Origin: an uncultured Dehalococcoidales bacterium
GTDB taxonomy: Bacteria; Chloroflexota; Dehalococcoidia; GIF9; UBA5629
Direction of reading: 5' to 3'
Assembly (NCBI GenBank): GCA_964554375.1
Contig: CAZKOL010000001.1
Location: forward strand, 24,597-88,596
DNA: 64,000 bases
Shown: positions 6,283 through 24,063 of the stretch, in pieces
How positions within the stretch are numbered: position 1 is the stretch's first letter
How the letters are laid out: every line of letters begins with the position of its first letter
The notes under the pieces: model-generated
The model's input: the letters and a program-made list of their open reading frames with translations, nothing else
Told to the model about the DNA's origin: nothing
Database searches by the model: none
Program-made: the position numbers and the translations under genes

Positions 6283-6297
6283 CCCTCAGTGTCAAGA

Positions 6298-6370
6298 CCT
6301 GCAGGGGCGGACATTCAGGTCCGCCCGCTTTTTCGGGCTTTTTCGGGCGGGTTTGAAAACCCGCCCCTGC
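6298..6370. repeat. GC-rich palindromic intergenic element (REP/MITE-like), copy A
   Basis: cctgcaggggcggacattcaggtccgcccg...gggcgggtttgaaaacccgcccctgc; two stem-loops flanked by short inverted ends; internal direct duplication ctttttcggg x2; closely related copies at 7639-7755, 38958-39004 and 47077-47140. Confidence 0.65.
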
Positions 6371-7561
6371 TCAGAATAACTCGCCTTTGTGCAAAAGCTC
6401 GCAGAACCTTTCAAACGGCATGACTTCCACCGGTCCGAAACGGTATGACCTCTGGCCAGAGTATACCCCGATCAGCCTGTCCGCCTTCACTTTATCCGCC
6501 GCTTTCAATGACAGCAGTGGCTTTTCCCAGGCGCGGTTCCAGCTACCGGCCCTTTTGACTTCGATCGCCACGATGTGCGGCACGGAATCAGCGTTGCGCC
6601 CGGATATCTCCACCACGAAATCGACTTCCACGCCTGCCGGGGTCCGGTAATAATGCACGGGCCGGTGTCTACGGCTGACCTCGTTGTAAACGCGCAGTTC
6701 GTGGTAGACCAGCGTTTCTAACGCAAAGCCCTGTGAACTGCCCTCAAGCGGATCGCGCACCCGACCGGCGGCCGCCCGGGCAACGCCCGGATCAAACCAG
6801 TAGAATTTTGGATGGGCAGCCTCACGTACTTTAAGTCCGGCGCGCCAGGCGGGCAGGAAATGTCCCAGCAGTGTGTCCACAAGGATAGAGAAATAAGATT
6901 CCACGGTGCTGCGAGCTGCGCCGGCGTCGCGGGCGATGTTCTGCATATTGACCACCTGGCCGTTCACCTGGCCGGCCACCGAGATGAACCGCATGAAGGG
7001 CGGCACGTTGCGCAGCAGCCCTTCCTGCCGTATCTCCTCGCGTATATGCGTGTCGAGATATGCTTCGAGAACGTCGGGGGCCTGCCGCGGGTCGCGCCGG
7101 ACCATGGGCAGCGAACCCCACTCGATAGCTGACGGCAGGTCAAAGGCCTTCCCCAGCTCTGCGGCGGAGAACCCCTCCATATTCAAAGTTATGGCGCGGC
7201 CTGCAAGCAGGTTGGCGCCTCCCCTGCGCAGCTTGCGCGCCGACGATCCGCAGAGCGCGAAACGCCAGTGCTGCGATTCGATCAGGCGGTGCACCTCGTC
7301 GAGCAGGGAAGGTATCTTCTGTATCTCATCCAGCACTATCCAGGCGCCGTCCGGCAGGCCGCCGGCCATGGCCTCGAGCCGGTGGGGGTCGCGTGACAGT
7401 TCGAGGTACAGGGACGCGTCCAGCAGGTCCAGGAAAAGCGCGCCGGGCAGCACATGCCGCAGCCATGTGCTCTTGCCGGTTCCGCGTGGACCAAACAGGA
7501 AGAATGAAACCTCCGGGCATTTCAGCAACCTGTCAATATATGGCTTAGCTACGTTATCCAT
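6371..7561 (-). CDS. AAA family ATPase (AAA_14 + DUF4143 C-terminal domain)
   Basis: Walker A GPRGTGKST, Walker B-like IVLDEIQ, C-terminal DUF4143-like region; 396 aa. Confidence 0.8.
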   Translation of the reverse strand: MDNVAKPYIDRLLKCPEVSFFLFGPRGTGKSTWLRHVLPGALFLDLLDASLYLELSRDPHRLEAMAGGLPDGAWIVLDEIQKIPSLLDEVHRLIESQHWRFALCGSSARKLRRGGANLLAGRAITLNMEGFSAAELGKAFDLPSAIEWGSLPMVRRDPRQAPDVLEAYLDTHIREEIRQEGLLRNVPPFMRFISVAGQVNGQVVNMQNIARDAGAARSTVESYFSILVDTLLGHFLPAWRAGLKVREAAHPKFYWFDPGVARAAAGRVRDPLEGSSQGFALETLVYHELRVYNEVSRRHRPVHYYRTPAGVEVDFVVEISGRNADSVPHIVAIEVKRAGSWNRAWEKPLLSLKAADKVKADRLIGVYSGQRSYRFGPVEVMPFERFCELLHKGELF

Positions 7562-7638: not shown

Positions 7639-7755
7639 GTGTAGGGGCGTACCTGCAGGGGCGGACATTCAGGTGCGCCCGTCTTTCCGTGCCCGCTTCG
7701 GGCTGTCATTGCGAGCGCAGCGAAGCAATCTCATTGTAGGGACGCTGCGTCTGTA
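7639..7755. repeat. GC-rich palindromic intergenic element, copy B (rearranged)
   Basis: gtgtaggggcgtacctgcaggggcggacattcaggtgcgcccgtctttccg shares the left arm of copies A and D with an internal duplication; right arm replaced by gtcattgcgagcgcagcgaagcaatctcattgtagggacgctgcgtc. Confidence 0.55.
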
Positions 7756-7856: not shown

Positions 7857-9398
7857 TTACTGCTCCTCCGCCGCCTCTAATATCCGGTCAATCCTGAAAG
7901 TCCTCTCCTCGCCGCGTTTGAGGCAGAAGGCGCGCAGGCCGCGGAAGGTCTTGCCGCCGTAGGTGAAATCCCCCACCGCCAGCGGCCTGATCACGCGCAC
8001 CGACTTCTCGTCGTTGGGCTTGAGGTAGGTGATGCGCAGCTTGCCGCCCTCCGCGATGACCTTCAGGATGAGCTTCTCCTTGTCCTTTGCAGAAAGCAAT
8101 TGCTCGGCCTTGCCGTACTGGTAGCGCGTGACGAAATTCACCACGCGCCAGTCCATCCAGATGTGTTTCTTCTGGACCGGCTGTTTGAGCACGATGCCGC
8201 CCAGCGAGGTGCAGCGGCTGAGCGCCACGTACATCTGCCCGTGGGCGAAGGTGCCCCGCCCGATATCAATGACCACCCGTTCGAAGGTCTTGCCCTGGCT
8301 CTTGTGTATGGTCACCGCCCAGGCCAGCATCAGCGGGTACTGTGTGAAAGTGCCCACCACCTCCGATTTTATCTCCCTGCCCTCCAGCTTGTACTGGAAT
8401 ATCTCCCAGGTGTATGGCTCGACCATCTCGTCCTCGCCATCCGCGATCTGCACATTTATGTAAAGCCCGCCTTCACCATCCTTGCTGAACCCCTTTATTT
8501 TTCCCATGCTGCCGTTGACCCAGCGGCCGGCGGGGTCGTTGTTGAGCATCATCACCTGGGCGCTCGCCTTGACCATGAGAGCCTCGGCTGTGGGCAGGGA
8601 ATCGTCGCTGAATTTGCCGTCCCTGGACGCCCTGAAGGTGTGCAGCTTACCCTTGAGCTTTACCAGTTCTGCGGCGTTGAGGTCCGACGCCATGGCGTTG
8701 GTAGTGGTGAGCCGCACCGAGATCCCCCCTCCGGGCGCGTCCATTTCCGGGATGCAGCGTCTGTTGAGCAGTCCGAGTCCGGCGCCGTCGATGCTGTTGT
8801 TGCGGATAGCGTTGAGCAGTTCGATGAAGCTCTGGTCGTGCTGGCGGTAGACCTTCTCCAGCTCGATGAAATCCATGTCGAAATCCTTGAAAACATGTGA
8901 GCTGAAGAAATAGGGTGTTTCATAAAGCCCGGCGAAGGCTTCCTTATCCCTGGAGGTCACCACGGGCGGGAGCTGGTAGAGGTCGCCCACGAACACCATC
9001 TGGACGCCGCCGAAGGGCTTGCGGGAGTCCGGCCCGTTGAGCCGCAGGAACCGGTCCACGCAGTCCAGCAGGTCCGCCCTGACCATGGATATCTCGTCGA
9101 TCACCAGGATATCCAGCTTCTTGTAAAGGCTGCCGCCCCTTTCCACTTTCTTGACCTTCGGGGGCGTGATGTCGGGTTTGAAGCCGAAGAACGAGTGGAT
9201 GGTCTGGCCCTTGATGTTGAGAGCCGCCACGCCCGTGGGGGCCAGCGCTACGACCTTCTTGGCTGTTATGACGCGGAAATACTCGAGCAGGGTGGATTTG
9301 CCGGTGCCGGCGCGTCCCGTTATGAAAACGCACCTGCCCGTCCTCTCCATGACGTCCAGGGCGCGCCGGAACTGCTCGTTTATCTCGATGTGCTGCAC
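7857..9398 (-). CDS. Pif1/RecD-family (AAA_30) DNA helicase with C-terminal WYL domain
   Basis: Walker A GRAGTGKST, Walker B LVIDEISMV, helicase C region; last ~90 aa contain WYL signature LRAFCLKRGEERTFRIDRI. Confidence 0.8.
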   Translation of the reverse strand: MQHIEINEQFRRALDVMERTGRCVFITGRAGTGKSTLLEYFRVITAKKVVALAPTGVAALNIKGQTIHSFFGFKPDITPPKVKKVERGGSLYKKLDILVIDEISMVRADLLDCVDRFLRLNGPDSRKPFGGVQMVFVGDLYQLPPVVTSRDKEAFAGLYETPYFFSSHVFKDFDMDFIELEKVYRQHDQSFIELLNAIRNNSIDGAGLGLLNRRCIPEMDAPGGGISVRLTTTNAMASDLNAAELVKLKGKLHTFRASRDGKFSDDSLPTAEALMVKASAQVMMLNNDPAGRWVNGSMGKIKGFSKDGEGGLYINVQIADGEDEMVEPYTWEIFQYKLEGREIKSEVVGTFTQYPLMLAWAVTIHKSQGKTFERVVIDIGRGTFAHGQMYVALSRCTSLGGIVLKQPVQKKHIWMDWRVVNFVTRYQYGKAEQLLSAKDKEKLILKVIAEGGKLRITYLKPNDEKSVRVIRPLAVGDFTYGGKTFRGLRAFCLKRGEERTFRIDRILEAAEEQ

Positions 9399-9534: not shown

Positions 9535-10047
9535 ATGGAACTTTATACTGTTGGGCACAGCAATCATCCTCCGGAGAAATTTATCAAACTGCTCGAGGAT
9601 AACCTCATCGATTGTATAGTTGATGTGCGGAGCACTCCATACAGTCAGTGGGCACCGTTTGCCAACCGTGAAAACCTGGAAAAGCTGCTTTCGTCAACTG
9701 ACATTCACTATATTTATCTGGGAAATCTATTGGGGGGCCATATTGAAGGTCTGAACAGCAACAAGAAAGCTGAAAGGATGAAAACATACGATTTCCTTCG
9801 CCAGGAGGAATACTTTATCAGAGGTCTTAACAGGCTGCTTGCTGAAATTGATAAACACCGCACGTGTATTCTATGTTCCGAAGAAGACCCTTCTTCCTGC
9901 CATCGCCGCCTTCTCGTAGGATCAAGTATTGCGGCACAAGGGGTACAGGTCATGCACATACGTGGTGATGGCCGCCTGCAATCCGAAGAAGACCTCTGGA
10001 AAGAGGAACAAAAAATAGATCAGAGCCAGGTATCGTTCCATATCTGA
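9535..10047 (+). CDS. DUF488 family protein (copy 1)
   Basis: N-terminus MELYTVGHSNH...FIKLL...IDCIVDVRSTPYS matches DUF488 signature; conserved C..CHR near C-terminus; 170 aa. Confidence 0.7.
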   Translation: MELYTVGHSNHPPEKFIKLLEDNLIDCIVDVRSTPYSQWAPFANRENLEKLLSSTDIHYIYLGNLLGGHIEGLNSNKKAERMKTYDFLRQEEYFIRGLNRLLAEIDKHRTCILCSEEDPSSCHRRLLVGSSIAAQGVQVMHIRGDGRLQSEEDLWKEEQKIDQSQVSFHI

Positions 10048-10057
10048 AACAAATCTG

Positions 10058-10495
10058 ATGCATATATATACTATAGGTTTTACCAAAAGAACGGCAGCGA
10101 ATTTCTTCGAAACGCTTAAGAAAAGCGGCGCAAAGCATTTATTGGATATCCGCCTCAACAACACCTCACAGCTGGCAGCGTTCACCAAAAAGCAAGACCT
10201 CCCTTATTTTCTGAAGAGCTTGGCCGGCATTGAGTACCATGAGATGCCGGAGCTTGCTCCCAGCGATCCAATACTGAAAGAGTATCGCCGCAGTAAAAAC
10301 TGGAAAACCTATGAGGATGCATACAATAAGCTACTTGGGAAAAGAAAGGCTGAGAAATCTGTGTCCAAAGTATGGCTAAAAGAGGGCGCTGTAATGCTAT
10401 GCAGTGAGCACGACGCTACCAAATGCCACCGCCGCCTGGCTGCCGAATACATAGCTAATAAAAACACCGGTAAAATAACAGTCACGCACTTATAA
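10058..10495 (+). CDS. DUF488 family protein (copy 2, diverged paralogue)
   Basis: MHIYTIGFTKR...HLLDIRLNNTS and C-terminal CSEHDATKCHRRL parallel copy 1; 145 aa; 10-bp spacer after copy 1. Confidence 0.7.
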   Translation: MHIYTIGFTKRTAANFFETLKKSGAKHLLDIRLNNTSQLAAFTKKQDLPYFLKSLAGIEYHEMPELAPSDPILKEYRRSKNWKTYEDAYNKLLGKRKAEKSVSKVWLKEGAVMLCSEHDATKCHRRLAAEYIANKNTGKITVTHL

Positions 10496-10501
10496 AAGAA
10501 T

Positions 10502-11245
10502 TTGCGCCAGAAGATTGTGATCACTGACCTGACACAGATGCCGCAAGGCAATAAGGTATGCGTGATCGGCATCAATGAGCAGGGCAGGACGATAAGGCCG
10601 ATACACGATAATGGTTTCCTGAAAAATTATCTATACAACAGGTCTCAACTAATAATCTTTCCGCGTGCCATTATAGAGTTCGATTTTATCGGAGAAAAGC
10701 CTCAACCACCACACATAGAAGATATGGACTTTGATCCAACATTCATTAAATATCATGGACTAAGCGATGACACCAAGTGGGAGAGTACGTTGTTAATCAC
10801 CTCTTTCAATACCGTAAACAAAATATATGAAGGTAATCTCAAATATGGAAAATGGGTACCGCCTGGTGCTAAAACAAGATCAATAGCCACACTATCCGGT
10901 TCAACCGAACACTCATTTATCATTGAAGAAGGACGAGCACCTAAAACGCGTATCCGGTTTCTGGACGCATCTGGAAATGAATACAACCTGCCGGTGAGCG
11001 ATCTGGCAATCCGGGAATTATGTTTTAGCGAAGTAATAAGAAAAGGGAAAGCTGTAGCTGATGTTGCCGGTGAATTGAATAGGGCCATCGCACAGATTCG
11101 GAAGATTTACTTGAGGGTTGGTCTAGCCCGCGCATATAAAGTGGAGGGTGCCGAAACAGAACATTGCTATCCTCAGATAACAGGCATCCATACTATACCG
11201 GATTACTTGAACGGCAAAACCTTTGCTGATTTTGCCAAGCGCTAG
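10502..11245 (+). CDS. hypothetical protein, no recognisable domain; start codon uncertain (TTG 10502, GTG 10517 or ATG 10538)
   Basis: 247-aa ORF, AT-rich codon usage like the adjacent DUF488 genes; 6 bp after DUF488 copy 2. Confidence 0.5.
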   Translation: MRQKIVITDLTQMPQGNKVCVIGINEQGRTIRPIHDNGFLKNYLYNRSQLIIFPRAIIEFDFIGEKPQPPHIEDMDFDPTFIKYHGLSDDTKWESTLLITSFNTVNKIYEGNLKYGKWVPPGAKTRSIATLSGSTEHSFIIEEGRAPKTRIRFLDASGNEYNLPVSDLAIRELCFSEVIRKGKAVADVAGELNRAIAQIRKIYLRVGLARAYKVEGAETEHCYPQITGIHTIPDYLNGKTFADFAKR

Positions 11246-11478: not shown

Positions 11479-12009
11479 TTAATTGCCGGTTTCGATACCT
11501 TGTTTCGCTATAGATGCTAAAAGAGCCGTGAGACCCCCCTGCATGACAACCGGAAAATATTTCCGCACCTCCATCTGAAACTGCACATTTATCTGTTCTG
11601 AAATCTGCCTGTCGTCGTATAAATGCAATCGGGCAAATGGGATATCACCCGTACCGATACCTTCTCTATCACAGACAACCGCAAACCATTGCATCTGGGG
11701 ACCGATCCTAAGTGCAAGGAAATATCCGGCATACCCGTCTACCGCGCGCTGGCGCAAACAAGAAAAATCCTTTTGCTGAACGATTATGCCCTTCCCTGTC
11801 GTTATCTTTAATTCAAACGAATAACAGCCGCCTCTGCTATCAATTGCGTCTATGTCCGCGTCTTCCGATATATGATTACGTATACTGTTCCATTTCAACT
11901 CATGTAACGCCAACACCATAATGCACTGGCAAATTTTACCTAACTGCGTAGTGCCATATTTGTCATTCAATTGCAGCAGCAATTGTTCACAGTCGTTTTC
12001 AAACGTCAT
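11479..12009 (-). CDS. hypothetical protein, third gene of the SMC-like ATPase operon (possible PD-(D/E)xK-like nuclease)
   Basis: 176-aa ORF starting 2 bp after the ATPase stop; motif D57...E66-L-K68 (AIDSRGGCYSFELK) compatible with a restriction-endonuclease-fold catalytic core; inference only. Confidence 0.45.
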   Translation of the reverse strand: MTFENDCEQLLLQLNDKYGTTQLGKICQCIMVLALHELKWNSIRNHISEDADIDAIDSRGGCYSFELKITTGKGIIVQQKDFSCLRQRAVDGYAGYFLALRIGPQMQWFAVVCDREGIGTGDIPFARLHLYDDRQISEQINVQFQMEVRKYFPVVMQGGLTALLASIAKQGIETGN

Positions 12010-12010
12010 C

Positions 12011-14131
12011 TCAGTTTATATCGGGGCCATTGGACGGATCCCAGCCACTGAATTCAATTACTTTCATGCTCATAGTCAAATTGTCCTTTAACATGACCAG
12101 AAGTTCCGAATCCATCGTGCTGACGATTACCTGACGCGTCTTGGCCGCGTCAGAAATAAGTTCCGCTATCCTTTCCTTATGATGCTTTGCCATACTTTGG
12201 GAAGGATCATCAAAGATAATAGCATTAAACGGTAAATCCTTTGTATTAGATGCACCGATACCGTAAAAAATGGACAAAGCCAGTGCATTAAGATCGCCCT
12301 GGCTCAGAATGGGAATAACATCATCACCAGAACTGTCGCGAAATAGAAAGTTTTCGTTACCACGTGATTGTTCCAGGCACATCTCCAAATCGACTATACC
12401 CGGGTTCTCCGCTATTCTGTCGAAACATTTTTTGATGGATTCTTTGGAGCTATTCACCCTCGATGCTCCTTCTTCATCCCGAATAGCCTTTACAGCCTTT
12501 AAAATTGCTTCTATATCGAGGATCTTCCACTCGGCATATTCGCGTAGAGTGGACAGCTGCTTGTAATTCGAATCATCCTTAACATTTGACAGGCGCTTGA
12601 TGTGTTCCTTGTTTTCCAAAATCCTGCAATAATCAATGATGGCATCGGAGTCGTCCTCTATTGCCCGGATTCTCGGTTCGAGGGACTTTAATGCATCCTC
12701 GAGTTGAAGCTTGGCTTCTTTTGCTGGCTTTATTTTGCCCGCGATGACTATCGCGAGATCCTCCCCCTTTTGCAAACTTATCTTAAGATCCTTCGCTACG
12801 CGGTCGCAGTTTTCAGCATATGACGTTCTCAGGGATGCTTCCGGTACGGTAAGGGTTAAGATCTTGTTTAATAAACCCGTAGCGCTTTCTATTTCTTTGG
12901 TTTTTCCATCCACACATTGGGATAAGGTCATGACTTCTGAGTCAGTCAACTGCTTCAATTTGTTGGCCAGATAAGAAATCTGATCCTGAGTGTCGCTTCC
13001 ACAGGCAGGGCATTGCGCGGCGCCCGTACCAGTCCCACTGTCTCTCATATATCGGTAGAGCGGATCTATAGCGGCATAAAGAGCGTTTATCCTGGCCAGA
13101 CTGGCTTCTATTTGCTTTTTTTCTTCAGTTAAACCGCTGATTTTGCCCTTAATTGATACTTCGTCACCATTTTGTGCTATGAACTCCGACATTTTTTTTC
13201 CGGCCACATCCAAATCCAGCTTCAATTTATTAATTACAGCCAATTTCCCTTCATAATTAACAATCTCTTCAGCTATCGCCTGATTACGAATGCTTGTAGG
13301 CGAGTGAATGAAATATTCACGCGCCAGTCGTTTAATCTGCATTACTCTTTCGTAAATATCTTTATGCCCTTGGATTTTTTCCGCGCTACCTGTGTCCCCG
13401 GTTCCACCCGTCGACTCAGTTAGCTTCTTTTGAAGTGACATGGCTTTCTGTTGCGCATTTTCGATTGAGACAAGGTTTACATTGAGTGCAAGTTTCTTGG
13501 CAATTTCTTCGTTCTGGCTGTTATAGCTTAATATACGGTCCTGAATCCGTTTGTTGATGCCATCTATAGATAGCTGCACCTTACTGGACCATTTATCATA
13601 TTTGCTGGCGGCAATAGTGCTCATCAACGAGTTGTACTCACCCAAACCCAACATCCTGTTGATTATTTCACGTTTATCTCGGGGTTCGGCAAGAGCCAGA
13701 TGCCGTATATTCTCCTGGTGTTGATAGACCATGGCCATAAAATCCATGAACTGACCGACTTGCTCATTTACCCACATATTGGCCGCGTCGCTCTTAATAA
13801 CTTTTTGGCTCATAGTTACGGTCAGTCCGTTATTACCTAATTTCGGGGTGCGCTCAAATATTATCGTATCTTGATCATTGTGACATGTCAGAATAACCCG
13901 GCAGGCGTGTGTCCTTGTGCGATTTTGCGGCTTCCAGTCTTTCCTTTCACGAATGCCGGTAGAGAGCCCGACGCATTTATCGCCAAACAGGCACCATTCA
14001 ACGGCATTTAGCGTGCTGCTTTTACCCTGGGCATTATTGCCGTACAACACGGTCACAGGACTGGTGAAATCAATTGTCTTCCCGCTTGTAAACGCGCGAA
14101 AACCCTGGATAGTAATTTTATCAATCCTCAT
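12011..14131 (-). CDS. Rad50/SbcC-like SMC-family ABC ATPase with central CxxC zinc-hook
   Basis: N-terminal Walker A GNNAQGKSST in an AAA_23-like head, long coiled-coil middle, CPACGS at aa 374-378 (apex), C-terminal signature LSQGDLNALALS and Walker B AIIFDDPSQS; 706 aa. Confidence 0.75.
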   Translation of the reverse strand: MRIDKITIQGFRAFTSGKTIDFTSPVTVLYGNNAQGKSSTLNAVEWCLFGDKCVGLSTGIRERKDWKPQNRTRTHACRVILTCHNDQDTIIFERTPKLGNNGLTVTMSQKVIKSDAANMWVNEQVGQFMDFMAMVYQHQENIRHLALAEPRDKREIINRMLGLGEYNSLMSTIAASKYDKWSSKVQLSIDGINKRIQDRILSYNSQNEEIAKKLALNVNLVSIENAQQKAMSLQKKLTESTGGTGDTGSAEKIQGHKDIYERVMQIKRLAREYFIHSPTSIRNQAIAEEIVNYEGKLAVINKLKLDLDVAGKKMSEFIAQNGDEVSIKGKISGLTEEKKQIEASLARINALYAAIDPLYRYMRDSGTGTGAAQCPACGSDTQDQISYLANKLKQLTDSEVMTLSQCVDGKTKEIESATGLLNKILTLTVPEASLRTSYAENCDRVAKDLKISLQKGEDLAIVIAGKIKPAKEAKLQLEDALKSLEPRIRAIEDDSDAIIDYCRILENKEHIKRLSNVKDDSNYKQLSTLREYAEWKILDIEAILKAVKAIRDEEGASRVNSSKESIKKCFDRIAENPGIVDLEMCLEQSRGNENFLFRDSSGDDVIPILSQGDLNALALSIFYGIGASNTKDLPFNAIIFDDPSQSMAKHHKERIAELISDAAKTRQVIVSTMDSELLVMLKDNLTMSMKVIEFSGWDPSNGPDIN

Positions 14132-14370
14132 AGGTCTCCTTCTTCCCGGTTCGACTCTGAATCTATCTCTTGACAGCCGTCTAATGCCCCACTTTCCAGC
14201 TCCTCCGCTGTGCCCTGAATGCTACCACCCATTTCATTTAAAAAGGCCTTCACAGAATCCTCTCCCCCCTGATCCAACTTGTCACATATCAGTTGAAACA
14301 TCTTTAGCCTTTCTTCTGACCGGGATGTACTGAAACTCACAATTTTCTGCTTGATCTTTTCCAGTTCCAT
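14128..14370 (-). CDS. small acidic protein, first gene of the SMC-like ATPase operon
   Basis: 80-aa ORF, strong RBS gaggagg, stop overlaps ATPase start (ATGA); Glu/Asp-rich. Confidence 0.5.
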   Translation of the reverse strand: MELEKIKQKIVSFSTSRSEERLKMFQLICDKLDQGGEDSVKAFLNEMGGSIQGTAEELESGALDGCQEIDSESNREEGDL

Positions 14371-14839
14371 TTAGCCTCCTCATGTGATGATTGCAGAGCG
14401 TCAAACCTTATTTATCGTTAAGAATAAGTTGCATATCCAGAATGACTACAATTGTTCAGGTAAATGCCGGTAAGCAGTACGGGTGAATATCTTTCCCCTG
14501 TCCCCCACACAGCCTGTCTCATACCAATTCCTCGGATGGCCAAATGCCGGCCAGTATGCCATTACACTACCTCCCGGATCATCATTTCGACATCTGCCCT
14601 ATATTACAACATCGTCCGTCTGCAATCAATATTGAACAGCTTATACGTACACAATAAGTCTACGACTATTGACAATAAAATGTTAATATGTCCAATCAGT
14701 AATGATTGAGTCGATTTATTCATAGGGAGTCACAGCTCCTTATACGTGGGATTTTTATGTATAAATGACTTAATAGCGGAATGTGATACTAATATATTAT
14801 TTGTGTCATAATATGCAGTATGCTCATGGAGGTGCAGAA

Positions 14840-15121
14840 ATGATAGTTAAGAATAAGTACAAATTAACGATAAAGGAAGCCCTTATTCTTTTCTTGAAAA
14901 ATCAGCCTAGCATGCAGGCTCGCTTATCTGAAATATACTTAGGTGTAAATGGTATCTTAAAAAGGGATGTGGCACCATCCGTTATTAGAGGTGTCATATA
15001 TATGGAAATGAAAAGATCTCAAGATCGCAAAGCTACAATAATCACACGTGTTGCCCCGGGTATTTATCGCTTAGCTAGTGGGGGAGCTAGCCAAGCCCGC
15101 CGTAATGTCCACAAAGGTTAA
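14840..15121 (+). CDS. small winged-helix protein (Mrr_N-like DNA-binding domain), putative regulator
   Basis: 93-aa product (MIVKNKYKLTIKEALILFLKN...GIYRLASGG) resembles the restriction-system Mrr N-terminal wHTH; RBS ggaggtg; sits between two defence modules. Confidence 0.4.
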   Translation: MIVKNKYKLTIKEALILFLKNQPSMQARLSEIYLGVNGILKRDVAPSVIRGVIYMEMKRSQDRKATIITRVAPGIYRLASGGASQARRNVHKG

Positions 15122-15330: not shown

Positions 15331-18300
15331 ATGTCATCTGATCTCACTTTTCTAACCAACGAACCAGAAAATACCCTGCTTGACCGTTTCTTAGTGTTAC
15401 TCAAGAAAGACTCGCGGTTTTTCGATTGTCTTGTAGGCTATTTTTTTATTAGTGGCTTCTATAAGCTTTATCCAGCTCTGGAGAATGTCGAAAAGATTCG
15501 TATTCTAATTGGTCTTCAGACCGACCGTGCCGCGTATGATCTTATACAAAGGGCTAACCAGCAGTATACTTTGCCTCTTGAATCCCATGCCACTGTGATC
15601 GAACACATTCCTTGTAATGTACTTGGTGAGTTAGAGAAGTCCGCCGATAGTTCAGACGTTGAAGCTGGCGTTCATAAGTTCGTCGAGTGGATTCGTTCGG
15701 GGAAATTGGAAATCAAAGCCTACCCTGGCGAAATACTCCATGCGAAGGTCTACATCATGACCTTTGCGGAAGGTGACCGTGATAAAGGGCGGGTAATCAC
15801 GGGGTCAAGCAACTTTACTCAATCAGGGCTACAGTTAAATCTTGAGTTCAATGTCGAGTTGAAAAACAGTGCTGATTATGATTTTGCCATTAATAAATTT
15901 AATGAGCTTTGGGCTGTCGCCGTGGATGTCTCCATGCCTTACGAAGACACCATCATTAATCGTTCGCCGTTCGCTCATTTTACGCCATATGAGCTTTATC
16001 TTAAATTCTTGTATGAGTATTTTAGAGACGAACTAAACCGGCCCGCTGAGCTTGAAGATATCTATGTACCTGACGAATTCAAACGCCTTAAATATCAAGA
16101 GGAAGCAGTTATCAGTGCCCGTAAAGTGCTTGAGGAATATGGTGGTGTGTTTTTAGCGGACGTCGTTGGTCTCGGCAAGACCTATATGGCTGCCTTGCTT
16201 GCCCAGCAGCTCGAGGGGCGCTCATTAGTTATAGCACCCCCTCATTTGTTGGATAAGCAGAATCGTGGCTCCTGGCCCAACGTCTTCGGTGATTTCCGTG
16301 TTCCCCATACTGACTTTGAATCTATTGGAATGCTGGAAAGCCTGTTAACACGCGATATATCAAAGTATTCCAATGTTTTCATCGACGAGTCACATCGTTT
16401 CCGTACTGAAACGAATCAAACCTATGAGATGCTTGCGCAAATTTGCCGCGGCAAGCGGGTTATCCTGGTTTCGGCAACACCTCTTAACAATACCCCACGG
16501 GATATACTCAGCCAGGTCAAGCTATTTCAGAACGGCAAGAATAGCACCATCCCTAATGTCCGCAATCTTGAAGCCTTTTTCTCGCAGCTTGAAAAAAACC
16601 TTAATAACCTTGATCGTCGGACCGACCGTGAACAATATTTCTCTGTAGTCCAGGCCAACGCCAAATTAACACGAGAGAATATTTTGAAGTACTTAATGAT
16701 CAGGCGAACACGCAATGAAATCATGAAATATTACGGGGATGACCTGAAAGCCCAGGGCTTTAAATTCCCCGATGTCGCCGATCCGCAGCCTCTATTCTAT
16801 AAGCTCAACAAAACTGAAAATGAAATATTTAACGAAATGGTACGTCTGATAACGCAGGCGTTTGTTTACGCTCGCTATAAGCCATTAACCTATTATGAGG
16901 GAAAGCGAGAACAACGTGATATACAAAGCCAGCGCAACCTGGCCAAATTTATGAAGATTCTCTTAATTAAACGGTTGGAGAGCAGCTTCCATGCCTTCCG
17001 TTTAACTCTCGATCGCTTTATCCACTCCTATGATCGCTTTATTGAGGAATATGATAATGGATATGTGTATATCAGCAAAAAGCATATAGGTAAAATACTG
17101 GAACTTCTGGAAACGGATGACCAAGAAGCCGTTGACCGGTTGCTTGAATCGGATAAGGCCGAGCGTTTAAATGCGAAGGACTTTAATGCGGAGTTTATCA
17201 ATGACCTCAAGGCTGACCGAAAGGTCCTGCAGGAAATTGACACCCTTTGGAAGCGGATCAAGCGGGATCCCAAATGGGAGGCTTTTCGTGCCGTTCTGAC
17301 TACTGATTCCACGCTAAAGAAAGGCAAAGTTATCATCTTTACTGAATCAAAAGAGACTGCCGAATATCTTTCTCAGAAGATTGCCGCTGAAGTTGATAAA
17401 AAGGTGCTTTTATATACCGGCCATTCTGACGAGTCTGTTCGTAAAACCGTTATATCTAATTTTGATGCCCGCGCTTTTCAGCCCCAGGACGAATATCGGA
17501 TTCTGGTCGCTACAGAAGTACTTTCCGAAGGTGTCAACCTTCACCGGTCAAACATTGTAGTTAACTACGATATACCATGGAATCCCACCCGTCTCATCCA
17601 GCGTGTCGGGCGGGTAAACCGGGTTGATACAACATTCCCCATCATCCACACTTACAATTTTTTCCCAACTGAAGAGAGTAATGATCTGATTAAACTAAAA
17701 GAAGCGGCTGAAGCCAAAATCCATGCTTTCATCGAAATGCTCGGCGCCGATGCCCGTCTGCTTACTGAAGGCGAAGAGATCAAATCGCATGATTTGTTTG
17801 CCAAGTTGATTTCTAAGAAAACGATAACGGGTGAGGATGAAGAGGAACAGAGCGAACTGGAATATCTCACTGAAATTCGTGGGGTTCGTGATAATCAACC
17901 CGACATGTTCTTACGCATTAAGAGATTACCCCGGAAGGCCCGTTCGACCAGGCTTTCATCGGTGCAGGATAATGCTGAAGTGAAACAATATCCTTCCCTG
18001 ATAACCTATTTTCGCCAGGGCAGGCTTGATAAATTTTTCCTTGCCGGTATTGGCCCTGCTGATCCCATAGAGCTCGATTTCTTTAACACAGTATGTATTC
18101 TTAAGCCTGCCGACACTGAAGAAAAACTACAAGCAATACCGCATGATTTTTATACCCTATTAAATAGAAATAAACACGCCTTCGAAACAGCCACCAGCAC
18201 GGACATGGGTGATACCATCTCCCCGCAAAAGGGTGTGGCGAATGATGTTTATATACTAAAGCGCCTTAAGGCGAAGGAAATCCGTCACTATCATGGTTTC

Positions 18301-18549
18301 ACCGAGGATGATGAGCTGTACATTCGACAGGTAATCCAGCTCCTGACAGATGGGGCGCTCCCCAGGCCTACGACCAAAAAGGTAGCCGACGCTCTAAAAA
18401 AAGAAATGGAACCTCTTAAAGTTTTGGGGATTTTAAGGCGTGACATCCCATATCAGTTCTTCCAGGCAACCCGAGCGCAACAGACTGCTCAAGCATTCAA
18501 GCCTCGTGAAGTAATTCTTTCATCTTATCTATTGGAGGAAGGATCATGA
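15331..18549 (+). CDS. PLD-family nuclease fused to SNF2/SF2 helicase (putative restriction subunit)
   Basis: N-terminal PLD motif LHAKVYIM...GSSNFT; helicase motifs GLGKT (I), DESH (II), QRVGRVNR (VI); ~270-aa uncharacterised C-terminal region; 1072 aa. Confidence 0.8.
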   Translation: MSSDLTFLTNEPENTLLDRFLVLLKKDSRFFDCLVGYFFISGFYKLYPALENVEKIRILIGLQTDRAAYDLIQRANQQYTLPLESHATVIEHIPCNVLGELEKSADSSDVEAGVHKFVEWIRSGKLEIKAYPGEILHAKVYIMTFAEGDRDKGRVITGSSNFTQSGLQLNLEFNVELKNSADYDFAINKFNELWAVAVDVSMPYEDTIINRSPFAHFTPYELYLKFLYEYFRDELNRPAELEDIYVPDEFKRLKYQEEAVISARKVLEEYGGVFLADVVGLGKTYMAALLAQQLEGRSLVIAPPHLLDKQNRGSWPNVFGDFRVPHTDFESIGMLESLLTRDISKYSNVFIDESHRFRTETNQTYEMLAQICRGKRVILVSATPLNNTPRDILSQVKLFQNGKNSTIPNVRNLEAFFSQLEKNLNNLDRRTDREQYFSVVQANAKLTRENILKYLMIRRTRNEIMKYYGDDLKAQGFKFPDVADPQPLFYKLNKTENEIFNEMVRLITQAFVYARYKPLTYYEGKREQRDIQSQRNLAKFMKILLIKRLESSFHAFRLTLDRFIHSYDRFIEEYDNGYVYISKKHIGKILELLETDDQEAVDRLLESDKAERLNAKDFNAEFINDLKADRKVLQEIDTLWKRIKRDPKWEAFRAVLTTDSTLKKGKVIIFTESKETAEYLSQKIAAEVDKKVLLYTGHSDESVRKTVISNFDARAFQPQDEYRILVATEVLSEGVNLHRSNIVVNYDIPWNPTRLIQRVGRVNRVDTTFPIIHTYNFFPTEESNDLIKLKEAAEAKIHAFIEMLGADARLLTEGEEIKSHDLFAKLISKKTITGEDEEEQSELEYLTEIRGVRDNQPDMFLRIKRLPRKARSTRLSSVQDNAEVKQYPSLITYFRQGRLDKFFLAGIGPADPIELDFFNTVCILKPADTEEKLQAIPHDFYTLLNRNKHAFETATSTDMGDTISPQKGVANDVYILKRLKAKEIRHYHGFTEDDELYIRQVIQLLTDGALPRPTTKKVADALKKEMEPLKVLGILRRDIPYQFFQATRAQQTAQAFKPREVILSSYLLEEGS

Positions 18550-21500
18550 ATCGTGATCAGGCTTACACCCAGGTTAAGCAGACCTTCACTCACGGCTTTG
18601 ATGCAGAGCAGTTCCGTAATTTTGTGATCAATCTATTGAATCATGTTGATATATCCAAGGCGCAGTCGTGGAATAGTCAATATGTTAAGGGCGCTTTTAA
18701 GGAACATGTTCAACGGTATGAGCGTCTTGGTACATATACCTCGCCAAGTGGTGAGAAACTGGATTTGCTTGTTGTTTATTTGACGAGTGCTACGAAGCTT
18801 GAACGTGCCCGCACAGCCATTCGTAACTTCGTCGCCGATCACCTCAAGACACGGGATGAAAAAGATGCCGCTCTGGTTGCTTTTGTATCCCCGCTGGAAA
18901 AGCAGTGGCGGTTTTCCTATGTCAAAATGGAATACGCTACCTTTGTAAAGGAATCTGGCAAGGTGGGCGTGGAAACACGGCTCACTCCGGCCCGCCGCTT
19001 CTCATATATCGTGGGAGAAGGCGAAAGCTGTCATACGGCTCAAACCCGGTTTTTCAGTTTGCTTCAGGACACGAAAACCGACCCTACACTTGCGGTCATT
19101 GAGGAAGCATTTAGTGTCGAGGCGGTCACCGCAGAATTCTTTAAGTGCTATGTGGAGCTTTTCGAGGGTATTCATTATGCGCTGGAACAGCGCATCCAAA
19201 AGGACAAGTCTATCCGTGATGAATTTCAGGAAAAAAATATCAATGCTGTGGACTTTTCTAAAAAGCTCATGGGGCAGGTTGTGTTTCTCTATTTTCTTCA
19301 AAAAAAAGGGTGGCTTGGTGTTGAAAACGGGCATGCCTGGGGCACTGGCCCGCGCGATTTCCTTCGCCGCCTCGCTAAAGGCGAATATGGTAAGTACTCA
19401 AACTTTTTCAATGATGTACTTGAACCGCTTTTCTATGACACCCTTGCTACTGACCGTGGCCATGATGCATGGTGTGATCACTTTAAGTGTCGCATCCCTT
19501 TTCTTAATGGCGGTTTGTTTGAACCGCTCTCTGGTTATAATTGGCGTACTACAAATATTCTCCTTCCGAATCACCTGTTTCTTAATGACAAATTCGTAGA
19601 GGAGGGCATTACAGGTACGGGCGTACTCGATGTATTTGACCGCTATAACTTTACTGTCAATGAAGCTGAACCGTTGGAAAAGGAAGTTGCAATTGACCCG
19701 GAGATGTTGGGTAAAGTCTTTGAGAATCTGATTGAAGAAAACCGGCGCAAAGGCTTGGGGTCATATTATACACCGCGCGAAATAGTGCATTATATGTGCC
19801 AGGAGAGCCTCATCAATTACCTTGATACTGTATTGAATACAGAAAGCCAATTGGTTCCCAGAGATGATATTGAAAACTTTATTTACTTAGGCGAGCAAAT
19901 CTCGCATTACGAGTCCGTGGATACCAAGTATCCTATTAAGATGCCCGCTACTATTGAGTCAAATGCTCGCTTGATTGATGCCAACCTGGCTGAGATTACA
20001 GTATGCGACCCTGCCGTTGGGTCCGGTGCGTTCCCTGTAGGGATGATGGCCGAGATCGTTCACGGTCGCTGCGCACTCACTCCCTATTTCAACGCCGTCC
20101 AGGAGCGCACCCCTTACCATTTCAAGAGACATGCAATACAAAATTGTCTTTATGGCGTGGATATCGACCCCGGCGCTGTCGAGATCGCCAAGCTGCGTCT
20201 TTGGCTTTCACTTGTCGTCGACGAGGAAGATGTTAAGCAAATAAAACCGTTACCGAACTTGGACTATAAAATTGTCACAGGAAACTCTATTCTTGGTTTC
20301 CCATTCAAATCGCAAAGGGTGACTGCTATAGAGAGCTTAAAGCAGCAATTCTTTGATGAGTATGATCAAGAAAAAAAAGCAGCGCTAAAATCTCAAATAG
20401 ATGAGCAATTGCGCGCGGCCTTTGTGGCTTCTAAAAAGACTCTTGGATACGATGTGAGCTTCGATTTCGAGATATTTTTTTCAGAAGTATTTTATAAGGG
20501 TGGGTTTGATATAGTTATCGCCAATCCACCATATGTAAGCTACGGGCTGCGTGGAGCACAGAAGATGTCACAACAAGAGAAAGATCTCCTTAAGCAGCTC
20601 TTCCCTGATTCTGCTGAATATAAGATCAGTCTATACGCGATCTTTATGGATAAGGCAATTCAATTAGCCAAGGTGGGCGGAGTACAAACGTTAATTGTTC
20701 CAGATAGCTTTCTTATGGGCAGGTTCTTTTCAAAAATAAGAAGCCTAATCCTTCGCAAGAACAAAATGATTGAGTTATTGGTTTTACCTTATGGAGTATT
20801 TGATACTACTGTGGGCTTCTCAATCGTGTATCTTTTTCAACGAAGTGACTCTGTGAATGCATCCTGCAAAGTCGTAACAAGATATATAGATTCAAAAGAC
20901 AAGGTGATGAATAAGACCCTAAGAACCTTCTCGTACCCACAAGATTACTTTAAGACTATTCGTTACAATCGGTTCAGGTTATTTTTTGATGAAACGACAA
21001 TGAATTTGATATCTAAAATTTCATCTGGAACAACACCACTCGGAGATATAATAGACTTTAATAGCGGTTTGATTGCTAAAGGCGGCAAGGATTCTATTGT
21101 TGCTACAGAAAAATTAAATAAATATTGGTTACCTGGACTATCATCCGGTGGTGAAATCAGGCGATTCGTATTAAAACCGAAAGGCTACTATATTCTATAT
21201 CAGAAAGATAAGATACATAGCGGGTATGATTGCGTAGATTATTTTACTGACAAATTATTTATGCGGCAGACAGGGGATTCTCTCATATGTGCAATTGATG
21301 ATATTCACTTGCTTTGCTTGAATAATGTTCATGTTGGAAATCTAAAAGACGACGATTATTCCTTAAAATATATTGCTGCCCTAATTAATAGTAAATTATT
21401 GAATTACTATTATAGGTCGCTTGCTTTAGAAAGTGGCAGAGCTATGGCTCAAACTGATATCGAAACCATAGAGGAACTGCCAATAAAAAAGATGTCAAGA

Positions 21501-21689
21501 ACCTATGAAATTCAAATCATTGAATTAGTTGACAATATCCTCGCCATTACTAAGGATGAGGATTACTTGGTTAACTCGACCAAACAAGATAGAGTCAACG
21601 GGCTTGAATTCCAGATTGACCAAATGATTTATGAAATTTATGATTTGACGCATAAAGAAATAACCAGCGTGAAGGGCAAAGCGTTTTGA
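18546..21689 (+). CDS. Eco57I/TaqI-like N6-adenine DNA methyltransferase with C-terminal target-recognition region
   Basis: LGSYYTPREIVHYM, AdoMet motif DPAVGSGAF, catalytic NPPY (VIANPPYVSY); ATGA start/stop overlap with the upstream helicase; 1047 aa. Confidence 0.8.
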   Translation: MNRDQAYTQVKQTFTHGFDAEQFRNFVINLLNHVDISKAQSWNSQYVKGAFKEHVQRYERLGTYTSPSGEKLDLLVVYLTSATKLERARTAIRNFVADHLKTRDEKDAALVAFVSPLEKQWRFSYVKMEYATFVKESGKVGVETRLTPARRFSYIVGEGESCHTAQTRFFSLLQDTKTDPTLAVIEEAFSVEAVTAEFFKCYVELFEGIHYALEQRIQKDKSIRDEFQEKNINAVDFSKKLMGQVVFLYFLQKKGWLGVENGHAWGTGPRDFLRRLAKGEYGKYSNFFNDVLEPLFYDTLATDRGHDAWCDHFKCRIPFLNGGLFEPLSGYNWRTTNILLPNHLFLNDKFVEEGITGTGVLDVFDRYNFTVNEAEPLEKEVAIDPEMLGKVFENLIEENRRKGLGSYYTPREIVHYMCQESLINYLDTVLNTESQLVPRDDIENFIYLGEQISHYESVDTKYPIKMPATIESNARLIDANLAEITVCDPAVGSGAFPVGMMAEIVHGRCALTPYFNAVQERTPYHFKRHAIQNCLYGVDIDPGAVEIAKLRLWLSLVVDEEDVKQIKPLPNLDYKIVTGNSILGFPFKSQRVTAIESLKQQFFDEYDQEKKAALKSQIDEQLRAAFVASKKTLGYDVSFDFEIFFSEVFYKGGFDIVIANPPYVSYGLRGAQKMSQQEKDLLKQLFPDSAEYKISLYAIFMDKAIQLAKVGGVQTLIVPDSFLMGRFFSKIRSLILRKNKMIELLVLPYGVFDTTVGFSIVYLFQRSDSVNASCKVVTRYIDSKDKVMNKTLRTFSYPQDYFKTIRYNRFRLFFDETTMNLISKISSGTTPLGDIIDFNSGLIAKGGKDSIVATEKLNKYWLPGLSSGGEIRRFVLKPKGYYILYQKDKIHSGYDCVDYFTDKLFMRQTGDSLICAIDDIHLLCLNNVHVGNLKDDDYSLKYIAALINSKLLNYYYRSLALESGRAMAQTDIETIEELPIKKMSRTYEIQIIELVDNILAITKDEDYLVNSTKQDRVNGLEFQIDQMIYEIYDLTHKEITSVKGKAF

Positions 21690-21877: not shown

Positions 21878-22405
21878 ATGTCTGACTTCACGTTTGAATT
21901 GGCTGGAGAGCAATTTAGAAGAGCCTATCTTCTTTACATTATAGAAATTCGTCATAGCAAAGATAGGTATTTCTACATCGGGCAAACCGGCGACAACCAT
22001 TATGTAACTGCTCGTCCTGCATTCCGGCGGTTATTCGGGCACCTGGAAGATAGTGGAGGAAGTACCCAGAATCAAATATACAAATATATTGCTACTAAGA
22101 TCCTCAGTTATAGCAAGTCTAATACCAGAGAAAAGTACAGTAATGAGTGTAAGCAGGCTGTTGAAGATTTCCTGGTAGGTTCTATTGTGCGCATGCACGT
22201 TTACAACGTGCTGCCTTTTAATCCTGCCATTAGCCGCCTTGACCATCTTGCAAACGTTAAAAAAGTTACTCTATTAGAAAAATATGTTATTAAAGCTTTT
22301 GCTGATTCAGGCAAGTCTCTTATTAACAAAGCCGTAAGGGCGCCGATTGGACCATGTCCGTATCCGCGACAACTCGCCCGAATTAAGGGTGAGTTCGATC
22401 TCTAA
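21878..22405 (+). CDS. GIY-YIG domain protein (putative nuclease)
   Basis: YLLYIIEI...YFYIGQTGD...RRLFGH fits GIY-x(10)-YIG-x(n)-R..H; 175 aa. Confidence 0.5.
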   Translation: MSDFTFELAGEQFRRAYLLYIIEIRHSKDRYFYIGQTGDNHYVTARPAFRRLFGHLEDSGGSTQNQIYKYIATKILSYSKSNTREKYSNECKQAVEDFLVGSIVRMHVYNVLPFNPAISRLDHLANVKKVTLLEKYVIKAFADSGKSLINKAVRAPIGPCPYPRQLARIKGEFDL

Positions 22406-22482
22406 AAACATCATTTATTAACCATTTCTTTCGGCTGATTCATGCCGGATACTGTACGTAACCGGTACATCATGCCAACCTA

Positions 22483-23250
22483 TCAACCGTATTTCGCGCT
22501 GAATGAATCCACTACATCCAACAGCCGCGCATCCAGCAAAGCTCTGACTTTCTTTATGATGTGGTCATCGATAGTTTTATAGTACGCCTGCGCTATCCCC
22601 CCGGTTATACAGGCCTGTGTATCGGTATCCCCACCCAAGGAAATGGCTTTACGGACGGCGTCTTCATAAGTGCTCGACTCCAGGAAGGCGATAATCGCCT
22701 GCGGCACGGATCCCTGGCAGGTTGGATCAAATCTGTAGCCGGGGCGGATTTCAGCCAGCGTTGCACTGAGGTCGTAATCAAAAGTAGTCTCGATGTAATC
22801 CTTTATTTCCTTTTTACCTTTACCTGTTCTTGCAAGAAAGATGGCTGCCGCTGTGGCCTGGGCGCCCTTGATGCCCTCCGGGTGGTTGTGGGTGACTTCT
22901 GCGCTTTTCTTCGCCTCTTCGAGGACTTTATCCAGAGTATCGAATGCAAAGCCGACCGGGCTGACCCTCATGGCTGAGCCGTTGCCGAAGCTGTTATAAG
23001 GTCGACTATTATTATTCCTCAGCCACTGCCTGAACATGCCGCCGTAACCGGCGTGGGGGAACAGGCGGCCCCACTCCTTGTACGCCGCCGCATATCCTTT
23101 ACCCGTCAGGATGCTGTCCGCTGTTGCAACGGTCATGACGGTGTCATCGGTGAACCTGCACCCCGGGCTGAACAGCGGGAAGTCCTCCGTTTTAACCGGG
23201 TGGGCTTCATAGACAGACCCGATGATGTCACCGGCGATGACTCCGATCAT
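22483..23250 (-). CDS. ADP-ribosylglycohydrolase family protein (ARH/DraG-like)
   Basis: N-terminal GDIIGS, C-terminal GGDTDTQACITGGIAQA metal-binding motif; 255 aa. Confidence 0.8.
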   Translation of the reverse strand: MIGVIAGDIIGSVYEAHPVKTEDFPLFSPGCRFTDDTVMTVATADSILTGKGYAAAYKEWGRLFPHAGYGGMFRQWLRNNNSRPYNSFGNGSAMRVSPVGFAFDTLDKVLEEAKKSAEVTHNHPEGIKGAQATAAAIFLARTGKGKKEIKDYIETTFDYDLSATLAEIRPGYRFDPTCQGSVPQAIIAFLESSTYEDAVRKAISLGGDTDTQACITGGIAQAYYKTIDDHIIKKVRALLDARLLDVVDSFSAKYG

Positions 23251-23391
23251 TTATTACGGATTCCCAAATAACATTTTTGACTGTTACTTCAATCTAACCG
23301 CTATAAAAATGGGGGCGGAGTTCGTTCTCAGGTATATAACGAAAATGAGTCGAAAATTGCGATTACTTCGTTTCCTGACAAACGCCTGAGG

Positions 23392-23643
23392 TTAGGCGAC
23401 ACCAGTCGGCTCCAACTCCAGGGTCACCAGAAGCGACGGATTGGGTACCAGGCCGAAATCAGCGGGATCTTCCCCTTCAAGGTGAAGCGCTACCGCCTCT
23501 TTTAGATTGGCAATAGTCTCATCCAATGTTTTCCCCTGCGTGACTACTGCTATCTCGTGACATTCAGCCACATAATAATCATCACCTTTATAAACGAAAG
23601 CCTTTATCGAGCTATGCATTGCTTTACTCCCGGTCCTTTCCAA
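23392..23643 (-). CDS. HicB-family (UPF0150) antitoxin-like protein
   Basis: FVYKGDDYYVAECHEIAVVTQGKTLDETIANLKEAVALHLE matches HicB/UPF0150 fold signature. Confidence 0.6.
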   Translation of the reverse strand: MERTGSKAMHSSIKAFVYKGDDYYVAECHEIAVVTQGKTLDETIANLKEAVALHLEGEDPADFGLVPNPSLLVTLELEPTGVA

Positions 23644-23700
23644 TCTATCTCAAAATGATACACCTATATTCCTCAATTGTAATCAATCTTCGCTGATTAC

Positions 23701-24027: not shown

Positions 24028-24063
24028 GGATTTCTTTGCTCCTCCTTTTTATCCTCCGCAATA

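Follow-up and report, generated by a model that had tools for sequence, protein, structure and literature searches.

The window, a stretch of 64,000 nucleotides (nt) from contig CAZKOL010000001.1 of an uncultured Dehalococcoidales bacterium, carries on its minus strand three translationally coupled open reading frames (ORFs) for proteins of 80, 706 and 176 amino acids (aa), which are referred to here as the triplet. The first ORF called encodes a small subunit (80 aa; 14128-14370), the second a zinc-hook ATP-binding cassette (ABC) ATPase of the Rad50/SbcC/LmuB type (706 aa; 12011-14131) and the third a predicted PD-(D/E)xK nuclease of the Hjc type (176 aa; 11479-12009). The stop codon of the 80-aa ORF overlaps the ATPase start in the sequence ATGA, and one base lies between the TGA of the ATPase and the ATG of the 176-aa ORF, in agreement with an earlier note on this DNA that had described the three ORFs as coupled. 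A ribosome-binding site, GGAGG, is located 5 nt ahead of the 80-aa ATG. Upstream of the operon, an AT-rich non-coding leader of 412 nt (14371-14782, minus strand) is presumed to carry the promoter. Scans of this leader for consensus promoters and terminators yielded no excess of sites over shuffled sequence and, for this reason, no promoter has been assigned. A structured RNA in the leader was also considered and was rejected, as no Rfam family matched.

The 706-aa protein is a compact Rad50-type zinc-hook ABC ATPase, with Pfam matches to SMC_N and AAA_23, and the motifs that had been read from its sequence are all present. In a profile and alignment of 30 homologues, the Walker A motif or P-loop lies at G31-S39 (GNNAQGKSS, within the motif GNNAQGKSST at residues 31-40; 14015-14041, minus strand) and contains an invariant K37. 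The ABC signature region is found in the alignment columns of L609-S620 (LSQGDLNALALS; 12272-12307, minus strand), and the Walker B motif and D-loop at A637-S646 (AIIFDDPSQS; 12194-12223, minus strand), where D641 and D642 are invariant. Alignment, profile and an AlphaFold2 (AF2) model place the zinc-hook motif C374-P-A-C377 (13001-13012, minus strand) at the apex of the coiled coil, the CPACGS sequence being residues 374-379 of 706 and thus mid-protein; by column counts, both cysteines are present in 30/30 homologues and P375 in 28/30. In the AF2 model (pLDDT 87), the two head halves comprise residues 1-175 and 575-706, the coiled coil is antiparallel with approximately 190 residues per arm, and the hook comprises residues 366-383, with CPAC in the loop that joins the ascending and descending helices. 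The signature reads SQGD at the place where that of Rad50 reads SGGE. Walker B is DD and not DE in 30/30 sequences, so that the usual catalytic Glu is an Asp, and the H-loop position has no His, reading S-T-M/P-D in the family and V-S-T-M-D in the 706-aa protein. The Q-loop of the family is QHQE, again by column counts.

Profile comparison, fold ranking and the DD and H-loop residues together indicate that the ATPase is Rad50-like in fold and bears head motifs of the LmuB type. Searched against the PDB, the profile matched archaeal and Thermotoga Rad50 head halves (best E-value 4e-23) as well as 1l8d and 6zff, two structures of the Rad50 zinc hook on its own, and no Lamassu chain at E <= 1e-3. 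Foldseek ranked Chaetomium thermophilum Rad50 first for the model (6e-18) and Salmonella LmuB eighth (4e-11). The best PADLOC match was the LmuB model PDLC03859 (E-value 2e-36), with residues 1-677 aligned to model positions 3-590 of 611, and the PtuA, GajA, PbeC and DndD models matched the P-loop end alone (residues 1-50 or 1-100). A PADLOC-confirmed LmuB of 1213 aa, encoded in an Acidobacteria metagenome-assembled genome (MAG; locus L066), was aligned by hhalign in its C-terminal head (E-value 4.8e-10), and a DDP plus STxD-x-F pattern is common to the two heads. NCBIfam returned weak matches to arcadin-4 and to an archaeal SMC-related protein, far under the curated cut-offs, and PHROGs matched the ATPase alone among the three proteins, as SbcC-like.

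The 176-aa protein has no family match in Pfam, PADLOC, NCBIfam or PHROGs. As modelled by AF2 from an alignment of 55 sequences (pLDDT 93.5, pTM 0.90), it has a core of residues 1-130 with the restriction-endonuclease-like alpha/beta arrangement and a catalytic D and ExK, followed by a long C-terminal helix (residues 134-169) that is absent from Hjc, the chains of which have 119-126 residues. The nuclease profile directly matches Hjc 1gef (E-value 6e-4) with VD...EVK aligned. G24, K25, Q28, D52, E66 and K68 are invariant both in the 55-sequence alignment and in another of 22 sequences. D52 (11854-11856, minus strand) aligns with the VD Asp of Pyrococcus furiosus Hjc and is the predicted catalytic Asp, and E66-L67-K68 (11806-11814, minus strand) form the invariant (D/E)xK motif. 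The PD-(D/E)xK core suggested in the earlier note is therefore supported by the model and the Hjc match, whereas its proposed catalytic residue, D57, gives way to the conserved D52. On the modelled structure, the protein is a PD-(D/E)xK nuclease of the Hjc type. Its first helix bears an invariant GKxxQ motif, the Q28 of which presumably corresponds to the essential first-helix Glu of Hjc. When 1.84 billion representatives were searched exhaustively with the profile, 212 nuclease clusters only were recovered, nearly all of stand-alone proteins of approximately 165-190 aa (in a few cases reaching 275 aa) that were matched end to end, with no fusion and no effector swapping among the 212 clusters; the names given to family members are at most 'Holliday junction resolvase' or 'hypothetical protein'.

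These residues bear on a reading in which the ATPase would be an SMC-like DNA organiser, a segregation factor or an addiction module, and the nuclease a degenerate DNA-binding subunit. Poor ATP hydrolysis is suggested by the DD Walker B and the missing H-loop His, and both the invariant Gln in place of the acidic residue of the first nuclease helix and the arcadin-4 and archaeal SMC-related matches are consistent with such a role. However, the NCBIfam scores concerned are far too low, no partition or plasmid context was found for the triplet, and the invariance of D52, E66 and K68 in both alignments argues for retained catalysis; this reading is considered very improbable.

The small protein is all-alpha, with a helix-turn-helix core of the form 'ER..L(W/F)..I...(F/L).(Q/E)GG...V'. 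Its homologues, of 59-82 aa, consist of a helix, an 'ER..LW..I..AFE.GG' hairpin and a third helix, and have no invariant residue. The 80-aa protein is acidic, as had been claimed (pI 4.3, net charge -10.5), and is the most acidic of a family with a median pI of 5.2, an extreme that is due to a clade-specific acidic C-terminal tail. It matches nothing in Pfam, PADLOC (E <= 1), NCBIfam or PHROGs, and de novo designed helical bundles are the only PDB matches to the family profile. Descent from the SbcD C-terminus was rejected, as hhalign against Escherichia coli SbcD gave a probability of 0.2%, and so was a relationship with LmuC, given that no PADLOC LmuC model matched and that the PDB offered designed bundles only. 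Kinship with SbcD or LmuC is thus rejected at the level of sequence and is conceivable only at the level of fold or complex.

Relatives of the ATPase number approximately 90 at 22-41% identity, in addition to two closer proteins that are 85-89% identical. When GTDB species genomes were scanned, 76 loci were obtained, which were scored with local hidden Markov models of the three families on ORF-based gene calls, all counts being restricted to non-redundant, assessable loci. The small gene is located directly upstream of the ATPase gene in 64/71 loci and the nuclease gene downstream in 65/71, and the full triplet is present in 55 of the 66 assessable non-redundant loci, on the same strand and with junctions that overlap or measure a few bases. 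Pairwise-identity matrices are correlated between ATPase and nuclease (r 0.87) and between ATPase and small protein (r 0.84; Mantel p <= 5e-4), and the three parts co-evolve. The earlier note had named lack of conservation as a unit in other genomes as a ground for refutation; the triplet does recur as a unit outside the window, and is a real conserved unit. It is carried by DPANN archaea and by many bacterial phyla, with bacterial loci in the Chloroflexota, Planctomycetota, Cyanobacteria (Nostoc, Moorena), Nitrospirota, Aerophobetes, Thermodesulfobacteria, Acidobacteriota, Actinomycetota, Thermotogae and Proteobacteria, and archaeal loci in the Micrarchaeota, Pacearchaeota and Hydrothermarchaeota. 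In several MAG loci (L050, L059, L062, L070, L076 and L082) the ATPase is split into 2-4 ORFs, which could be frameshifts, pseudogenes or assembly errors. Carriage on mobile elements was considered and rejected: tblastn searches with the window nuclease and a family-central member found no copy in PLSDB plasmids or INPHARED phages, and PHROGs offered nothing beyond the SbcC-like ATPase match. A conserved fourth gene was likewise rejected, since upstream and downstream neighbours differ among the lineages examined.

As a full set, the triplet corresponds to none of the named systems modelled in PADLOC, Pfam, NCBIfam or PHROGs, and no source was found that names the three proteins of the window. 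Nor was any operon of Rad50/SbcC with Hjc or a Holliday junction resolvase, or a defence description of one, found in the literature searched, which excludes Krishnan et al. 2020 (ABC-3C). The earlier statement that the genes match none of Lamassu, Septu and PARIS accordingly holds for the set as a whole, Pfam and PADLOC searches having returned no strong full-length matches of all three proteins to a named system. It does not hold for the ATPase, which alone matches LmuB over its full length, shares the DD and H-loop features and has a small gene in the position of lmuC. With Septu PtuA, PARIS AriA, Gabija GajA, DndD/PbeC, RloC and OLD the ATPase has an N-terminal P-loop region in common; the HNH, TOPRIM, UvrD, dnd and anticodon-nuclease partners of Septu, PARIS, Gabija, Dnd-Pbe and RloC are absent from the triplet operon.

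With SbcCD/Mre11-Rad50 the triplet shares a split-head ABC ATPase, an antiparallel coiled coil with a single CxxC zinc hook, tight coupling of the ATPase gene to a nuclease gene and, in several genomes, addAB neighbours. It differs in having no Mre11/SbcD phosphoesterase, the predicted Hjc-type nuclease being encoded downstream of the ATPase instead. The earlier claim that an SbcD/Mre11 partner and an RloC-type domain are lacking has been upheld, as neither was found; no phosphoesterase of the Mre11/SbcD type (Metallophos) is present among the ORFs scanned in the window island, and no Metallophos-type gene appears in the gene tables of seven homologous neighbourhoods that were looked up. The ATPase, with arms of approximately 190 aa and a total of 706 aa, is also shorter than E. 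coli SbcC (1048 aa). Further differences from SbcCD/Mre11-Rad50 are the DD Walker B, the H-loop without His and the SQGD signature, and the triplet has an extra subunit of 60-80 aa with no detectable similarity to SbcD. Compared with the Hjc/RecU resolvases, in which the D...ExK motifs align with those of the triplet nuclease, sequence identity to Hjc is 11-15% only, a C-terminal helix of approximately 40 aa has been added, the first-helix Glu of Hjc has apparently become the invariant Gln of GKxxQ, and the nuclease gene always follows that of a Rad50-like ATPase.

Lamassu is the other system with which the triplet invites comparison. Haudiquet et al. reported that hhhhDD and a single CxxC mark the 'long' LmuB, the short and long forms being approximately 600 and 800 aa in length, and Lamassu has recently been proposed to have arisen from SbcCD (PMC12663957). 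The triplet likewise has three components, namely an SMC-like zinc-hook ATPase, a small partner encoded directly upstream of it and a nuclease, and it is often found in defence islands. Its ATPase has the full-length LmuB match, the DD Walker B and single CxxC of long LmuB, and no H-loop His, as in the one LmuB compared (L066), with which DDP/STxD is common. In contrast to Lamassu, LmuA and LmuC models detect neither its nuclease nor its small protein, the gene order is small protein-ATPase-nuclease and not LmuA-LmuC-LmuB, and the nuclease has one long helix where LmuA has a multi-helix C-terminal domain. A single fixed effector is found in the triplet, whereas Lamassu has many, their diversity being a hallmark of that system. 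The ATPase family, at approximately 720 aa, is intermediate between short and long LmuB, solved LmuB structures rank below Rad50 as its relatives, and the triplet occurs also in AddAB and housekeeping contexts. The small protein, at 60-80 aa, is probably shorter than LmuC. The nuclease was examined as a possible LmuA relative and rejected, there being no PADLOC LmuA match and a negative hhalign comparison with the LmuA of L066. The triplet would work like SbcCD and Lamassu and is a member of neither as currently defined, because LmuA, LmuC and the Lamassu gene order are missing from it, as are Mre11 and the DE and His residues.

One possibility is that the triplet belongs to a Lamassu or ABC-3C subtype that has already been catalogued, for example in the MC/CTD classes of Krishnan et al. 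2020 or as DefenseFinder Lamassu-PDDEXK. Loosely defined, Lamassu consists of an lmuB SMC gene, usually an lmuC and a variable effector that may be PDDEXK, and the ATPase does pass the PADLOC LmuB model; ABC-3C classes MC1-MC8 and CTD1-CTD12 exist. However, the LmuA and LmuC models of PADLOC v2 miss both partners, the lengths reported for LmuB (approximately 600 and 800 aa) and the gene order differ, and the literature searched neither describes a Rad50/SbcC-Hjc pairing nor names the proteins. This possibility is regarded as unlikely.

It is proposed instead that the three proteins form one complex, similar to SbcCD/Mre11-Rad50 with a different nuclease, which would have a genome-maintenance role analogous to that of SbcCD while being horizontally mobile and maybe co-opted for defence; we place this proposal a little short of probable. 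Two copies of the 706-aa ATPase would dimerise via the CPxC zinc hook, as Rad50 does through its own, and the ATP-bound heads would act as a clamp on DNA ends, hairpins or branched DNA. ATP would probably act as a slow switch and not as fuel, in view of the DD Walker B and the absent H-loop His. The nuclease would be tethered at the ATPase through its extra C-terminal helix and/or through the helical protein of 60-80 aa, which would serve as an adaptor; Mre11 binds Rad50 through a C-terminal helix-loop-helix. By analogy with Hjc, a homodimer acting on four-way junctions, the nuclease would dimerise and use D52, E66 and K68 to cleave branched or structured DNA, and tethering would limit cleavage to DNA recognised by the clamp. 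As an accessory module of genome maintenance in most lineages, the complex may process ends, hairpins or junctions and feed AddAB. The cassette would be horizontally mobile and, having landed in a defence island in this genome, could direct the same activity against foreign DNA.

Gene neighbourhoods in distant loci give a mixed picture. In 32 such loci, the genes nearest to the triplet, two on either side, belong to 156 Pfam families. AddAB-like helicase-nuclease pairs are located directly beside the triplet in L001/L008, L004, L093, L059 and L070, which are counted as at least four lineages because the AddA proteins of L001/L008 and L004 are near-identical. With approximately two AddAB genes per genome, this recurrence is, by inference and without a formal background, far above chance. 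In the Dehalococcoidales loci L001-L003 (360-1710), AddB-AddA lie after the triplet and, before it, there are an RNase_T/ExoX-like exonuclease and an ORF of 36 aa, in what looks like a cluster of DNA-end-processing genes. The operon order in Bacillus subtilis is addB-addA-sbcD-sbcC, and the adjacency of triplet and AddAB mirrors the addBA-sbcDC arrangement of Bacillus. In four species of Nostoc, the triplet is found in a syntenic housekeeping context amid IF-2B (MtnA-like), isocitrate dehydrogenase and GUN4 genes, and in Moorena it lies beside ClpB and a gene for a 265-aa RecB-like PDDEXK_1 protein. AddAB adjacency, housekeeping synteny and the lack of effector swapping fit an SbcCD-like repair machine at least as well as they fit defence. 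In L066 (10790-16211) and L068 (9467-14888), both Acidobacteria MAGs, ORFs of 598 and 1213 aa lie directly downstream of the triplet and are evidently the single LmuA (1e-208) and LmuB (E-value 0) matches of the PADLOC neighbour scan, by our attribution. Since these ORFs adjoin the triplet, it appears to coexist with bona fide Lamassu as a separate system.

Several observations weigh against the proposed SbcCD-like complex, and most of them favour a Lamassu-like anti-phage or anti-plasmid system. In such a system, the LmuB-like ATPase would sense phage DNA ends or replication intermediates, and the small protein, positioned as LmuC, would help to sequester the nuclease until sensing released or activated it, leading to DNA degradation and to abortive infection or restriction. 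The long-LmuB DD Walker B and the absent H-loop His of the ATPase point in this direction, as do its single CxxC, its match to PDLC03859, the pattern common with the L066 LmuB, the lmuC-like position of the small gene and the fact that PDDEXK effectors are known in the Lamassu family. The family is rare and its distribution across phyla is patchy, a pattern seen more often in defence genes or mobile cargo than in core repair genes. A defence neighbour (PADLOC E <= 1e-15 within two genes) is present in approximately 8-9 of the 32 distant loci, roughly a quarter, as a raw fraction without a background rate; the neighbours include Old (two loci), SIR2-HerA, LmuA+LmuB, GajA/GajB, DRT, DruA and Cas6b, and in L094 an OLD nuclease adjoins the triplet. 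The window copy and its 85% relative are both located in variable low-GC islands of defence and toxin-antitoxin genes, the relative amid toxin-antitoxin, Abi_2 and RhuM genes and the window copy with PDC-S01, Pif1-WYL, DUF488/DuOB (PDC-M45), PLD-SNF2 with a type IIG methyltransferase and an IetA-like gene. Two of the AddAB-adjacent loci, L059 and L070, have a split ATPase ORF, and nuclease catalysis may differ from that of Hjc because Q28 presumably stands in place of the essential Glu.

On the other side, neither LmuA nor LmuC is matched in PADLOC even at E <= 1, the nuclease is unlike the LmuA of L066 and carries a single C-terminal helix, gene order differs and effector diversity is absent. 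Rad50 is closer to the ATPase than any solved LmuB by both sequence and fold, several lineages have AddAB or housekeeping contexts, and no plasmid or phage copies are known from the searches above. A Lamassu-like system is thus a serious contender, although on balance doubtful. The earlier proposal of a defence system is sustained in so far as the island setting is concerned; the role itself is not established, in view of the AddAB, Nostoc and Moorena contexts and the lack of effector swapping. Defence is a plausible role, not a proven one, and repair is no less likely.

A broader and more speculative interpretation, which we hold to be somewhat unlikely, is that the triplet represents a third, unnamed Rad50-type lineage, placed between SbcCD and long Lamassu, that has an Hjc-like nuclease and a mini-adaptor in the place of Mre11/SbcD and has spread horizontally across bacteria and DPANN archaea. 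It might act as an SMC-gated junction or hairpin nuclease, serving repair in some hosts and the restriction of foreign replication intermediates in others. To our knowledge, Mre11/SbcD is the only kind of nuclease stably coupled to Rad50-family clamps, Lamassu using released effectors, and the triplet would then be a clean case of a machine central to DNA-end processing that has had its nuclease displaced by a non-orthologous one. It would also offer a compact (706 + 176 + 80 aa) and tractable model of an SMC-like clamp that licenses a structure-specific nuclease. With its Rad50-like fold and LmuB-like, DD and H-loop-His-less head, it would be a living intermediate in the exaptation of repair to immunity and, as a candidate intermediate occurring in both repair-like and defence-like contexts, would bear on the proposal that Lamassu arose from SbcCD (PMC12663957). 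Two of its three genes are left unannotated by current PADLOC, Pfam and NCBIfam models.

The surroundings of the window copy are a genuine defence island or hot spot. The triplet lies in a low-GC stretch (0.41-0.46, against approximately 0.58-0.60 in the native-GC flanks), and both base composition and neighbours agree with the AT-rich island containing Pif1-WYL, two DUF488 genes and a PLD-SNF2 plus methyltransferase pair that had been described. Island borders of the tRNA/att type were sought and rejected, there being no tRNA genes and no direct repeats that bracket the triplet. Convergent with the triplet, on the plus strand at 9535-11245, are two DUF488 genes (170 and 145 aa; PADLOC PDC-M45B 1e-43 and PDC-M45C 4e-54) followed by a 247-aa Dual-OB (DuOB) gene. 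This module remains attached to the triplet in the 85%-identical relative (L084/L085), where the other flank differs and the two modules lie amid RecQ-PRTase/DprA, RhuM, Abi_2 and toxin-antitoxin genes. As a part of the system, DUF488/DuOB was rejected, since it is linked in the clade of the window only and is absent from the distant loci examined.

Beyond the DUF488 genes, a Pif1-like helicase with a C-terminal WYL domain has native GC (7857-9398, minus strand). Near-identical contigs vary on this side, and L089 has other genes there, indicating a strain-variable flank. Further out is an AAA_14/DUF4143 gene (6371-7561; PADLOC PDC-S01), which is flanked in a cassette-like manner by two copies of a 42-nt direct repeat (6297-6338 and 7651-7692; 88% identical) with a GC-rich hairpin (GGGGCGGAC...GTCCGCCC). 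On the other side of the triplet, the space from the operon leader to the PLD-SNF2 gene contains a 112-aa ORF (14783-15121, plus strand), for which related contigs have a gene call of 93 aa; it has no Pfam match, and from its sequence it looks winged-helix-like and might have a regulator role. The PLD(HKD)-SNF2 helicase (1072 aa; PADLOC HKD+Snf2 3e-50) and a 1047-aa methyltransferase of the Eco57I/TaqI_C type (PADLOC REase_MTase_IIG 3e-232) are encoded on the plus strand at 15331-21689 by genes that overlap by 4 nt, and look like a two-gene restriction or DISARM-like module. These are followed on the minus strand by an ADP-ribosylglycohydrolase gene (22483-23250) and, in a high-GC patch, by a gene for a 522-aa AAA ATPase that resembles IetA (24942-26510; PADLOC 1e-21); the interval 21878-26510 also contains a 175-aa ORF without a family match. 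More low-GC patches (0.45-0.49, against a background of approximately 0.58-0.60) are present at 26001-28000 and 59001-61000 and may be further acquired segments.

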